A stretch of DNA of 64,000 nt, taken from an archaeon (lineage in GTDB: Archaea > Iainarchaeota > Iainarchaeia > Iainarchaeales > DTGL01). Positions 56,123 to 64,000 of the stretch are shown one piece after another. The stretch's first letter is position 1. Each line of letters starts with the position of its first letter. The DNA lies in assembly GCA_029258755.1 (NCBI GenBank), contig JAPDKC010000027.1:3435-67434 (forward strand), in the 5' to 3' direction. The notes under the pieces are model-generated. The model worked only from the letters and a program-made list of their open reading frames with translations. It made no database searches and was not told the origin of the DNA. The position numbers and the translations under genes are program-made.

Positions 56123-59100
56123 TCAGCTGCCATAGCTAATGCATTTATCCTTAAGCGACTTTTCAAACTCTTTAATGCTAAGAACGGATCCTTTTGTTTC
56201 CAAAAGCCACTTTGGATTCCACCAGAACGTTGTTTTGCCTCCAGAGCTTGTTACGCAAACCTTTTCATCCTCCACAAGCTTTAACACATCAGCTATTGAC
56301 CTAACTGTTTCTTTTTGCAGACCACTCAATTCAGCAACATCCAATTCTGCAGAGTTCGGTGTCAGGAAGCGGACATTATCGCTCATCGCTTTTATCGCAT
56401 AGGAATCTCCCGAAGGAACGAATATTATAGAGCTGAGATAAACATCGCCGCTGTATTGGGCAGAGTCCCATAATAACCCATAGGTAGTATCTGAAAGCTT
56501 TTCGTCTGGATAATAAGAAAAGGCTTCAATTACTGGCACACCACTAAAATCTAGGCACTGGCCCAAACCGTTCCAATAGGCTATAGAGGCTGTTGGAGCT
56601 ATCGGCGTATCGCCAGTAAGTAATGCGTATTCTGCTTTAACTTTTTTGCCTTTCTCTCCACGAACTTTTATTATTATTGGTGTTGCGATGTTCGAGGAGA
56701 ATCTCAACATGCTCTTATTTCCTATAAGCTCCAATTCTAGTATGTTGCCTCGTGTTGCAGGGCTTCCGTTAATATAAGCCAAGCTTTCTTCTTTAATGGT
56801 TTCCATCGTGATAACAGGATTGGCTGCAGTTATCGTTTCAGTTTTTATTTCTCCAAATTCGGATGTTATAACGATTTCTTCATTCTGATTTACATAATTG
56901 CTTCCGTAACCTTGCCTGCCGTTATCTGATTCTAAGCCTACATAGCCATCAATAGGCCAATAATAGAATATGGAGTTGGGATATGGGTCAGAAAGCTTAC
57001 TGAACAATACTTCTATTTTTGCGTTGGGTTTTCCTTCTTTAAAGAGCCTAAATGAGTCGTTAAAATCTATGTTTAAGAAGACCTCATAGGTTCCAGGACC
57101 TGAAAGTAGGGAAGACCCTGTATGCTTGTCCATAAATTTCAACCTGTCTTGGCTGGCGAAATAAACATACAAACCATCGCTATTCGTAAACCAATCAGGA
57201 ACCTTGAAAAATGTCTGCTTGGCATAATACTCTGCAAAGTCCTTCCTAAAGTCGGCGGAATAACCATCTTTTATTAAAAGAGCTTTGAACTCTATGAGCC
57301 TTTTGAGGAAATCAATCTTCTCCTGTACCGTAGAACCAGGCCACCATTCGGGCCATTCGAGCTCTTCAACGTTTATATAGTCCTGCCAGTTCGGTATGCT
57401 TCTATCGATGAAATACATAAGAGCAGGCCTGCCTTCAATAATTCTTGTGGAGTACGGGAGCCAGCACGCAGCTTTGCTTTCAGCAAACATAAACGCTATT
57501 GCAACGGAACTTGTATCAACTACTTCGGATGATTCAGGTTCAGCTATAAGAGCACTTGCTATATAGGGCGTGGAACTTTTCACAAGATTTGTAAACTCGC
57601 AGTTAATCGAGGTGTTGCTATCTTCATCTACAGTAATCTCTTTAAGGCATTCTTCTGTGTATACCTCGCCGCTTTTCAGGGCAATCCTCACCTTGACATT
57701 CTGTTCATCAGATGTTTTGTTTTCTACAAACACCTTTATATTAACACTGCTTGCATCTTCATTTAGCGCATATTCAATCTTACTTAAACCAATCTTTCCT
57801 TCCTCAACACTGTGCACAGCTTTTTCATTAAATCTTTCTACAAATCCGTTTATCGCATTTTCATAAGGATTTGTAGGACAATCCAGATGATAGTTGTTTG
57901 CCCTGAAGAACTCATCAAGCATATGTAAACGTTTGCTTAAAGCAATGCTAAACTGTGTTGCATCACAATAAATCCCTTTGTTGTTATCAGCATCACAGCT
58001 GTTCCATTCTATTGCTTGCCAGCTCCAGTCAAGTTTTATTTTTGGTAGAGCTTTTTCTCCAGTAATGCCTATTCTTGTACCAGAAACACAAGTGTAAGCA
58101 TCGCTAAGCTCAGGCATCTCTATATCCAGCACCTGCTTGGTGTTAAACTTCAGATGGAACTTTTGTGTATATATTCGTGTTTCTGTATCTGGCACATTAA
58201 AATTGCTAAAATCTGCTTTATCGCGAGACATTCTTGCTTCTTTATGCAATGGATCGCCATGTATGTGCTCAATCGCCTTTATCTCTAAAATTCCATACTT
58301 TGGTTCTATATATTCTTCCTGTGTGCTGTTTTTGAACTCTATCGGAATTGTTTGAGAATTATCTGAATATGTAGTTGTTTCCTCTCCAGAGCCTAGTTTA
58401 ACTAAAAATGGAACATACTTAAGCTCTAAACTTTTCAAATCCTCAGGTAGGTAAATTACATAATCCTGAAATGGGAACGTAGCTTGCGTTGTATCACAAG
58501 CAGGCCCAGCTGTTGCTATGCTCCAAATAACAAAAGCAGTTATTATGGTTACTCCAATCGCTATGCATGGCGGACCGCAAGTGAAAGATCCTATAGTAAA
58601 CTCCAAAGAAAGTTTTGTGGCTATGTCTAACACAGCATTATAGAATGTCGGAGCTCCCAATACGGCGTTTAGTAACAAGCTAGGATTATCTATTGCGCTT
58701 TTAGGTCCAACAGATTGTTCTAGAGCTTTGTTTAGTATGCAATATGCAGGGAGTTTCTTAGGATTCTTACATTTTGTGCATAGAGTAGAGGTTATTTGTA
58801 TAGTTTCCAAGAGCATCTTGTTTTTGAGTTCTGTCGAATCCTGCCAATTAGCTTCCTTACTAAGCGTAAACTCGTATCTTTTAAGCTCAAAGTAGGCTGT
58901 TTCTTTAGGTCTTATAAGTACATCAATGGTATCTATCTTCCTATAGCTTGTTTGTGGTGTTCTCGCATGCAGGGTCATTCCATACAATCCAGGAATCTCT
59001 TCGCGGTAGATAGTAACAGTTTCTTTGGGATTGTTCCGAGTAAGTTTCAACTCATCCTTGGGTAAGAAAGTGATACCGCCTTCTTTGGTACCTCCTGTGC

Positions 59101-63104: not shown

Positions 63105-64000
63105 CTAACTTGCTTGGCCTATGCATTGCGCAGGTACGCTTTCAATCACGTTTGCTAATGTAGAATCTATGATTTCCTTAGGATTCCAGAAGAACGTTGC
63201 TTTAACGCTATTGCCAACACCTGCAACGCAAACCTTGCCTTCTTTCACAAGCTCGAGTACTTTCTCTACGGAAGTTATTTCAGTACCTGTAACACCTGAA
63301 AGTGAGACCTGCTTTCCTGTCTCGTTAGGTGTTATGAACACAGCATCATCAACTGCTTCAACCATTTCAAGAATACTTGTGCTTTTTATAGGGGTAAAGA
63401 ACACTGTCTTGAGGAAAACGTTGCCTTTCCTCTTAACATCGCACCATTCTAAACCATATTGGTGTGTATCAAACCTGCCAGCACATTTGGTTCTGCCAAC
63501 ACCACCTCTTATATCGCGCCTACTATCAAATGCTTCTGTAACTTCCTTATCGCTGAAGTCCCTGCAACCTTTGCCAATTCCTGTCCAGGTTGTCAAATAG
63601 CTTGATGCTTGCTGTGGCTGTCCATCAACCGTTACCTGGTAGAACGCATACGCTTTATTCCTTTCACCGCCAGCGATCCTTAATATTACAGGTGTTGCTC
63701 TGCTTGGGCTAAACACCATGTGCGTTTCTTCAGAGCCTCTGTCAATAGCTAATATAACACCGCGCATATCGTTGTTTAATGTCTTAAAGTTCTGTACCTC
63801 CTTTGCGTATAGCCAGCCACCTGGAATGGGTGTCGAGCCAGCTATTGTTGTTGTTCTAACAGCATGCGTTACATCTTCATTTATAAATATACTTTGCTCA
63901 GATTCTTGCCTGAAGTTTATGCCATAGCCCTGCCTTCCGTTCTCGCTATCTACGCCTATTAGGCCGTCAAATGGCAAATGATAGAACACAGAATCTGGCT
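63105..64000 (-). CDS. C-terminal end of a second large surface protein (continues beyond window)
   Basis: No start within the window. Last ~290 aa align with the C-terminal domain of the 2324-aa protein (DGxxGxxSxNGRQGYG, FxTPN, KVCV, FWNPK). Confidence 0.7.
   Translation of the reverse strand, partial: PDSVFYHLPFDGLIGVDSENGRQGYGINFRQESEQSIFINEDVTHAVRTTTIAGSTPIPGGWLYAKEVQNFKTLNNDMRGVILAIDRGSEETHMVFSPSRATPVILRIAGGERNKAYAFYQVTVDGQPQQASSYLTTWTGIGKGCRDFSDKEVTEAFDSRRDIRGGVGRTKCAGRFDTHQYGLEWCDVKRKGNVFLKTVFFTPIKSTSILEMVEAVDDAVFITPNETGKQVSLSGVTGTEITSVEKVLELVKEGKVCVAGVGNSVKATFFWNPKEIIDSTLANVIESVPAQCIGQAS

Follow-up and report, generated by a model that had tools for sequence, protein, structure and literature searches.

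Giant paralogous envelope-type proteins encoded in a row across Iainarchaeota

The two minus-strand genes at the end of the DNA stretch analysed here (64,000 nucleotides of contig JAPDKC010000027.1, hereafter the window) are neighbouring members of an undescribed cluster of giant envelope-protein genes that spans the Iainarchaeota (formerly Diapherotrites). In its canonical form the cluster contains three giant genes, named G1, G2, and G3 in their order, followed by the first of a series of small membrane-protein genes (s1–s5); the window holds the end of G2, the whole of G3, and s1–s5. Giant surface proteins of DPANN archaea are already known as a kind, among which the Iainarchaeota triplet is newly recognised: in the literature on giant, large, surface, or S-layer proteins of DPANN and of Diapherotrites/Iainarchaeum, we found no description of the G1/G2/G3 family. 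The original prediction, made from the letters of the window, had described two consecutive, paralogous surface-protein genes of a kind typical of small-genome archaea. The pair is indeed consecutive and paralogous, its products are predicted surface proteins, and a small-genome DPANN archaeon as the source agrees with the names of the homologues (Candidatus Diapherotrites or Candidatus Iainarchaeum) and with the archaeal split RNA polymerase subunits encoded in the window. We favour the view that the three giants form one surface complex of different subunits, which would serve as a coat and/or attachment structure, and hold it with about even confidence.

Whole-length paralogy and conserved gene order

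G3 occupies positions 56123..63094 of the minus strand (stop codon included) and encodes a protein of 2323 amino acids (aa) when translated from the ATG at 63094. Counted from the possible GTG start at 63097 instead, the open reading frame (ORF) covers 56123..63097 and has 2324 codons. G2 is cut by the window edge. Its C-terminal 297 codons (63105..64000, minus strand, frame open to the edge) carry the C-terminal module common to both genes and are the part of this genome's G2 that can be read in the window; full G2 and G1 genes were read in relatives. The G2 stop codon (TAG, 63107–63105) and the G3 ATG are 10 nucleotides (nt) apart, with a GGTG 7 nt ahead of the ATG, a predicted junction that fits co-transcription and resembles a coupled operon junction.

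The whole visible G2 fragment aligns in BLASTP with G3 residues 2040–2324 in GTG numbering (residues 2039–2323 of the 2323-aa protein; 56126..56980, minus strand), the module flagged by the original prediction. Significance in a pairwise alignment had been set beforehand as the measure of this similarity, and the comparison gave 30% identity, 51% positives, and E = 2e-41. The motifs quoted for the two C-termini were all located in G3 and in the G2 fragment, as the pairs GYVGLESDNGRQGYG and DGLIGVDSENGRQGYG, RFLTPN and VFITPN, and TTFWWNPK and ATFFWNPK, and as KVCV. The similarity thus stands, but not the proposed alignment length of ~450 residues, as only about 285–297 residues can be aligned within the window.

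Relatives with complete genes revealed how far the similarity extends. Locus L001, whose G3 is 69% identical to that of the window, contains three consecutive genes for proteins of 2481 (G1), 2879 (G2), and 2342 aa (G3), and the corresponding row in L002, with a G3 that is 45% identical, encodes 2439, 2826, and 2296 aa. In both loci the giants are followed by small genes and then PolB, as in the window. Compared with the C-termini of G2 in relatives, the window G2 fragment shows 80% identity in L001 (a called gene of 2879 aa), 60% in L002 (2826 aa), and 82% in L004, where G2 is a 2963-aa stop-to-stop ORF. With G2 proteins of 2826–2963 aa in these relatives, the upstream gene of the window is very probably a giant, as proposed, although its size cannot be read from the window alone.

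Within the relatives, G2 and G3 align in two parts, residues 1–1410 (E = 2e-97 in L001 and 1e-81 in L002) and the ~720 residues at the C-terminal end (E = 2e-85 and 1e-48), and the main difference of G2 from G3 is a middle insert of ~550 aa. Because the match covers both the first ~1400 residues and the ~720 at the end, G2 and G3 are tandem paralogues along their whole length and not unrelated proteins with one common module. The earlier idea of a shared module on otherwise divergent proteins is therefore not upheld, and the similarity visible in the window is, on these sequence comparisons, the last part of a tandem duplication that covered the whole length.

A metagenome scan with the N-terminal motif described below recovered complete G1 genes of 2420–2570 aa, which carry this motif and the transmembrane segment (TM) that follows it. 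The first ~1300 residues of G1 are 22–25% identical to those of G2 (E = 1e-43 to 1e-58). Its C-terminus has diverged strongly: weak matches to the C-terminal profile are seen in some lineages (E = 1e-12 to 1e-40), and in some the landmarks LIKDGYS, LPFDGEVG...GYG, and ICV...L.WNP are still recognisable, while the profile found no match at all in four metagenome G1s. Classification of the C-termini gave the canonical order G1, G2, G3, s1 in about 30 long loci; G1 lies upstream in all those that extend far enough. Almost every long locus contains two or three giants in succession on one strand, and the window order G2, G3, s1–s5 agrees with L001, L002, and about 30 other loci.

The family is distributed across the Iainarchaeota. 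A protein identical to G3 (P0001) is present on a 104-kb NCBI contig; full-length homologues (P0002–P0016) are about 26–72% identical, and P0017–P0019 are partial matches only. Those from named organisms belong to Candidatus Diapherotrites or Candidatus Iainarchaeum and are annotated as "hypothetical" or "carboxypeptidase regulatory-like domain-containing protein". The full C-terminal alignment (A1) was too diverse for locus scans, for which a smaller alignment (A2) and later an N-terminal one (A6) were used. The scan with the C-terminal alignment, taking one genome per species, returned 70 loci (L003–L072), almost all titled Iainarchaeum, "archaeon", or "uncultured archaeon", including Ca. 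Iainarchaeum andersonii (L050). Three loci (L019, L020, and L042), all from one study (AB_1215), carry the labels Chloroflexi, Falkowbacteria, and Thaumarchaeota; since their gene order is the same as that of their Iainarchaeum neighbours, these contigs probably belong to Iainarchaeota and were mis-binned. Searched against 1.84 billion cluster representatives (50% identity), the A1 profile gave 825 matches, of which 536 had E ≤ 1e-30. Among the best 150 of the 825, the match lies at the C-terminal end of proteins of 2200–3250 aa or in contig-edge fragments. Homologue searches with the shorter queries returned 4 short fragments only for the window G2 fragment and no matches for a G1 fragment. 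The three giant genes together span about 23 kb, or ~2% of a 1.05-Mb Ca. Iainarchaeum genome.

Architecture of the giant proteins

The giants begin with a conserved segment of ~45 residues directly ahead of the TM, which we named the N-box. Its consensus, MGxxxxLKDLYYxLEDKWYxxLDKIDxxIPVYKVIDPIDKVVPSF, is common to G1, G2, and G3 across the lineage. The window G3 contains a shortened form (L+DxxxxxKExYYxLEEKI; residues 1–22, 63029..63094, minus strand; E = 7.8e-10 against the N-box hidden Markov model) that is predicted to be cytoplasmic, and the second half of the box (IPVYKVIDPIDKVVPSF) has been lost in the clade of this protein. The TM follows at residues 23–53 (62936..63028, minus strand; Kyte-Doolittle peak 3.1) as a predicted signal-anchor, and such an N-terminal TM was found in every complete giant examined. 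The two elements together could be a sorting and anchoring element, with the N-box as a possible new sorting motif. The original prediction of a single N-terminal TM was right about this segment, but it is not the sole hydrophobic one, as a second at residues 1504–1533 is conserved in orthologues.

Behind the anchor, G3 residues 54–470 (61685..62935, minus strand) form an array of beta-sandwiches of the immunoglobulin (Ig)-like, CarboxypepD_reg, Big_1, and MG-like types according to Pfam. CarboxypepD_reg (PF13620) scores 90.2 bits in four stretches (gathering cutoff 32.3), with the top-scoring domain further along at residues 936–1009 (60068..60289, minus strand), and reaches 102.5 bits in the L001 G2 orthologue. 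Big_1 (PF02369) scores 63.3 bits in two stretches (cutoff 34.9), an Ig_DR_A0283-like match is also present, and MG4 (42.4 bits, cutoff 24.7) and bMG3 (29.4 bits, cutoff 34.9) overlap the CarboxypepD_reg matches on the same beta-sandwiches, which are placed at roughly 53–145, 232–313, 318–397, 396–470, and 936–1009. The transthyretin/carboxypeptidase-regulatory-like repeats that had been noticed by eye are thus confirmed by CarboxypepD_reg, Big_1, and MG4 matches above cutoff, in the ranges 53–470 and 936–1009. The remaining residues 500–935 and 1010–2323, over half of the protein, match no Pfam family; the middle region is nevertheless rich in invariant residues.

Across orthologues of 27–72% identity, 22 of the 27 cysteines of G3 are invariant or nearly so. 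The protein has an isoelectric point (pI) of 4.9, compared with about 8–9 for most cytoplasmic proteins of the window, and contains no HExxH, no PGF-CTERM motif, and no C-terminal hydrophobic segment. Conservation is fairly even along its length, with 35–53% identity per region and 26% in the second hydrophobic stretch, and no hypervariable tip is present. Divergence is quicker in the giants than in PolB (69% against 85% identity, and 45% against 68%).

Two features of the middle region are specific to G3. The second hydrophobic stretch (residues 1504–1533, 58496..58585, minus strand; hydropathy 2.2) has conserved cysteine flanks (CGPPC...GPAC) and reads CGPPC-IAIGVTIITAFVIWSIATAG-PAC in the window; G3 orthologues contain a Gly/Ala-rich hydrophobic stretch of 30–60 aa at this point, and G2 and G1 contain none. 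A favoured interpretation is a hairpin or re-entrant loop, which would keep the C-terminal region extracellular, because the stretches of deeper lineages are long enough for two helices and have cysteines at both ends. About 80 residues beyond the stretch lies an EHxHGDxxH motif (EHIHGDPLH in the window; residues 1609–1617, 58244..58270, minus strand), in which E1609, H1612, D1614, and H1617 are invariant in alignment A5 and which could be a metal site. The core HxH[GND]D recurs in about 24 orthologues of G3 but is absent from G1 and G2. As these paralogue-specific traits (the hydrophobic stretch and HxHGD of G3, the insert of G2) have been kept, a division of labour is suggested, in which each giant has its own role rather than being an interchangeable copy.

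The conserved C-terminal region, defined by the A1 profile, covers G3 residues 1564–2323 (56126..58405, minus strand) and is common to G2 and, weakly and in some lineages, to G1. Both G3 and the G2 fragment match the profile, ending in VCV...FWWNPK...C. The C-terminal ~760 residues were modelled with AlphaFold2 (AF2) at a predicted local distance difference test (pLDDT) of 82.7 and a predicted template-modelling score (pTM) of 0.72. In the model a helical hairpin, which bears the conserved CD..N....YCDATQFSI, is followed by an Ig-like sandwich, an alpha/beta domain, a beta-rich module, and a small alpha/beta end, which bears VCV...FWWNPK and the last cysteine. A separate model of the last 346 residues reached a pLDDT of 85.2. 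One invariant loop, DGxVGxxSxNGRQGYG, has a pLDDT of 82–87 in the long model versus 42 in the short one. Since it is ordered only with the upstream domain in the model, it appears to pack against that preceding domain, which suggests that it is not an exposed binding loop.

Comparisons of this region with known proteins returned little. Foldseek found only local Ig-like matches of ~110–130 residues in PDB for the long model (TM-score about 0.1) and nothing for the terminal module (best E = 0.033, TM-score ≤ 0.18); a viral model library likewise gave Ig-like matches only, and Pfam had no match in the C-terminal regions of 15 members. The sole profile match among PDB sequences, Asp3 (E = 0.045), was dismissed as a relative.

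A second type of locus, present in L051, L058, L061, L068, L071, L110, L112, L120, L125, and L139, encodes an N-box protein of 1360–1830 aa followed by one to three proteins of 770–1110 aa with ordinary signal peptides. The latter carry a compact version of the C-terminal region, consisting of the helical hairpin and the last ~400 residues, in which the Ig-like part is missing. In the four loci inspected (L051, L058, L061, and L068), this arrangement adjoins helicase- and Orc1/Cdc6-like genes. The module can thus exist outside giants, which lends limited support to the original idea of a module, although the pair in the window remains a pair of whole-length paralogues.

A proposed common surface complex and its competitors

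Several properties point to a location at the cell surface: the N-terminal TM in all copies, the Ig-like repeats, the conserved cysteines, and the low pI. In the mechanism that we consider, G1, G2, and G3 would be made together, along with four or five small multi-pass membrane proteins, and the giants would be inserted with the N-box in the cytoplasm and one TM near the N-terminus. A long extracellular stalk of Ig-like/CarboxypepD_reg beta-sandwiches would then carry the large Cys-rich C-terminal region; the related C-terminal regions would join the giants together as a common assembly or head part, and s1–s5 would form the membrane base. The resulting complex may act as the main cell coat and/or contact structure.

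A number of observations weigh against this reading. The case for assembly into one complex draws on paralogy and fixed gene order only. Scans against Pfam and NCBIfam found no S-layer or other functional family, and the C-terminal fold has no match in PDB, so that function must be read from context. N-glycosylation sequons are not enriched in G3 (15 observed versus 15.2 expected) and are uninformative as a surface test. If the G3 hydrophobic stretch were a single membrane span, it would place the C-terminal region in the cytoplasm and contradict the model for this protein. The row itself also varies. G2 is directly followed by s1, without G3, in L013 and L072, and two G3-like genes are present in L033 and L057. 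In L073 (CP064981.1, 444101–470424), from the complete-looking 1.05-Mb Ca. Iainarchaeum genome, the giants are split and rearranged: a 3391-aa giant, a 524-aa pilin-like protein, a 2107-aa N-box protein with a separate 491-aa ORF, a 156-aa TM protein, and a 2403-aa giant follow one another. The 2107-aa and 491-aa ORFs are a split G1-like protein, of which the latter matches the C-terminal module weakly. The giants can evidently be split and reshuffled.

Alternatively, the giants could be independent adhesins of a host-attached cell, whose C-terminal module is a host-binding or secretion-recognition tip and whose paralogues widen the host range. Stalks of Ig-like repeats are typical of adhesins, giant surface proteins such as the SPEARE proteins are proposed attachment factors in other DPANN (PMC6642349), the module is reused on the 770–1110-aa secreted proteins of the second locus type, and the faster divergence of the giants relative to PolB would also suit such a role. 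This explanation is nonetheless unlikely. The giants are whole-length paralogues rather than divergent proteins with one common module, and their near 1:1:1 orthology and fixed order show none of the copy-number churn of variable adhesins. Variability of the module does not exceed that of the remaining protein (mean identity 43% versus 44%), its invariant loop appears buried at a domain interface in the model, and the Foldseek matches contain no lectin, carbohydrate-binding-module, or adhesin-tip fold. A host-binding C-terminal domain, one of the functions originally proposed, is thus not favoured, in view of its average rate of evolution and of a loop that looks inter-domain. The proposed anchoring or secretion-recognition domain finds no support either, as the C-terminus is hydrophilic and without TM or PGF-CTERM, and the candidate signal sits at the N-terminus. 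Finally, Iainarchaeota have been reported as possibly free-living (PMC10936187), which argues against a host-attached cell and against the episymbiotic lifestyle assumed in the original prediction.

Among known systems, the SPEARE proteins of Nanohaloarchaeota are comparable in kind. They are 3000–8500 aa long, mostly extracytoplasmic, and membrane-anchored, and contain several adhesion-type domains. Serine-protease, laminin-G, toxin-like, and cytoplasmic restriction-endonuclease domains are also present, and most members are anchored by a TM close to the C-terminus (Hamm et al, 2019; PMC6642349). Like them, the Iainarchaeota giants are predicted to be anchored surface proteins of a small-genome DPANN lineage; in both groups the genes account for a few percent of the genome, and there may be several copies in each. 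In contrast to them, they are anchored at the N-terminus and have a hydrophilic C-terminus. Membership of G3 in the SPEARE group was rejected, as the defining domains are missing from the Pfam/NCBIfam scans and no sequence relationship was detected.

The N-terminal ~1000 residues of G3 include bona fide members of the domain families of Ig-like-repeat surface proteins (PF13620, PF02369, and MG domains), but these families are generic stalk domains and uninformative on function. Of the marks of alpha-2-macroglobulin and thioester proteins, CxEQ is missing from G3 of the window, L001, and L002, and the Pfam scan of the window G3 gave no A2M or thioester-domain match. Of those of archaeal S-layer glycoproteins, G3 showed no S-layer family (Pfam, NCBIfam), no PGF motif, and no C-terminal TM anchor. 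The giants do not qualify as type IV pilin-like proteins, as the N-box (LKDLYYxLEDKWY...PSF) precedes the TM and no [KR]G-cleavage motif is present.

Tetrabrachion of Staphylothermus marinus has a coiled-coil stalk and a C-terminal anchor. It and the S-layer canopy resemble the giants as very large, acidic, multi-subunit envelope proteins in which a stalk holds a distal head, and a similar mode of action may be suggested; the giants differ in their beta-sandwich stalk and N-terminal anchor, and no homology was detected. A further parallel is the predicted secretion/membrane-remodelling complex of arCOG01314, which includes Ig-like "S-layer-like" membrane proteins (Makarova et al, 2015; PMC5898192). 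There too, genes for large Ig-like surface proteins lie together with genes for small multi-TM proteins. The idea of such a system was rejected, as its signature DUF4350/GldG-like protein, MoxR-type AAA+ ATPase, vWA protein, and pfam07760 proteins were not found among the neighbours scanned.

If the products form a coat or contact apparatus, they would provide a first concrete molecular handle on how Iainarchaeota face their surroundings and on whether they attach to partners. To our knowledge, this lineage has no cultured member and nothing is known of its envelope. For annotation, the family offers a confidently modelled C-terminal region without Pfam match, a terminal module without match among solved structures, a conserved N-terminal motif that may be a new sorting signal, and a clean marker cluster for the Iainarchaeota lineage.

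Neighbouring genes and the rest of the window

The giants are followed on the same strand by five genes for small membrane proteins, whose occurrence was counted among 72 loci. Four encode multi-pass proteins: s1 (129 aa, 55680..56069; 45 loci, always directly after the last giant), s2 (106 aa, 55363..55683; 45 loci), s3 (87 aa, 55059..55322; 39 loci), and s4 (106 aa, 54735..55055; 38 loci). The fifth, s5 (139 aa, 54344..54763; 20 loci), is a membrane protein with a charged tail that is less conserved than s1–s4. Essentially every locus that reaches far enough contains s1–s4. Comparison with hhalign revealed that s1, s2, and s3 are mutual paralogues (probability 97% for s1 versus s2 and 88% for s1 versus s3). 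The three small membrane paralogues thus mirror the three giant ones in number.

Beyond s5, the genes for a 202-aa coiled-coil protein (cc202, 53732–54340, plus strand; 28 related loci), a 509-aa distant HerA-like NTPase (p509, 52047–53576, minus strand), and a 151-aa coiled-coil protein (cc151, 51607–52062, plus strand; 14 related loci) lead to PolB in a conserved position, and cc202, p509, and cc151 together with s3–s5 form a block that is intact through an inversion in L002. Pfam and NCBIfam gave no match above threshold for the C-terminal region of the giants, s1–s5, and the coiled-coil proteins; weak matches to TrbP, a T3SS translocon protein, and ComGF lay far below cutoffs and were dismissed. 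The profile of p509 matches YjgR (E = 7.6e-4) and HerA (E = 0.012) in PDB. In 13 of 13 aligned members GGxxxxR.H stands in place of the Walker A GK[ST], and p509 is probably an inactive ATPase.

Upstream of the row, a protein of 475–583 aa is encoded directly before G1 in at least eight metagenome loci (including L092, L105, L114, L122, L135, L145, and L075), and its type is also found in CP064981.1 (L073, 8305–9879); the window ends short of this gene. By eye, its N-terminus resembles a type IV prepilin signal, with [KRH]GF[NT][LM]F[ST]A followed by a hydrophobic helix and TTEE, while none of the Pfam/NCBIfam pilin models confirms a pilin.

These neighbours allow a different explanation, an envelope-spanning or cell-bridging machine in which the G3 stretch inserts into the cell's own or a partner's membrane, s1–s5 form a channel or platform, and the HerA-like and coiled-coil proteins are the cytoplasmic part. 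The Cys-flanked Gly/Ala-rich stretch and HxHGD of G3 are kept across deep lineages, s1–s5, cc202, p509, and cc151 are linked to the giants in every sufficiently long locus, p509 is distantly HerA-like, and the protein with the pilin-like N-terminus precedes G1. We regard this machine as somewhat less probable than the adhesins. With Walker A missing in all 13 members, p509 is unlikely to be a motor; no secretion-system family was found in any neighbour scanned, and no profile supports the pilin-like N-terminus. The linkage of p509 and the coiled-coil proteins may be plain synteny beside PolB, and membrane insertion of the G3 stretch is a prediction only.

Lower again, and quite doubtful, we place an undescribed surface organelle that would unite the three giants and s1–s3 with N-box sorting, the pilin-like protein, the HerA-like pseudo-ATPase, a membrane-inserting G3 (Cys-clamped stretch and His cluster, possibly entering the membrane of another cell), and a new C-terminal fold. 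An artefact, with assembly chimeras, pseudogenes, or chance frames in repetitive DNA read as giant ORFs, has a negligible probability: some giants are split into two or three ORFs in loci from metagenome-assembled genomes (L008, L051, and L068), but frames of 2300–2900 codons are intact in dozens of independent assemblies (NCBI, ENA, JGI, and Logan), orthologues share hundreds of invariant residues, and the AF2 models are confident. Besides these readings and the favoured surface complex, the probability left over belongs to functions not considered here.

The rest of the window also encodes Rpb1- and Rpb2-type RNA polymerase fragments, a Cdc48-type ATPase, and PolB. Together with the tRNA genes and the names of the G3 homologues, they mark the window as chromosomal DNA from a DPANN archaeon of the Iainarchaeota. 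Seven tRNA genes (two Thr, Glu, Met, His, Leu, and Arg) lie among housekeeping genes at 31548–47183, all on the minus strand; the tRNA-His call at 44199–44272 overlaps the start of an ORF at 42921–44246. Finally, the GC content falls to 30–34% (versus about 40%) at about 16000–24700. This is probably a mobile or defence island that has integrated here; its genes encode a TdeIII/EcoO109I-like type II restriction endonuclease, a tyrosine integrase, a GmrSD-N/HNH protein, and a zinc-ribbon protein of 800 aa.

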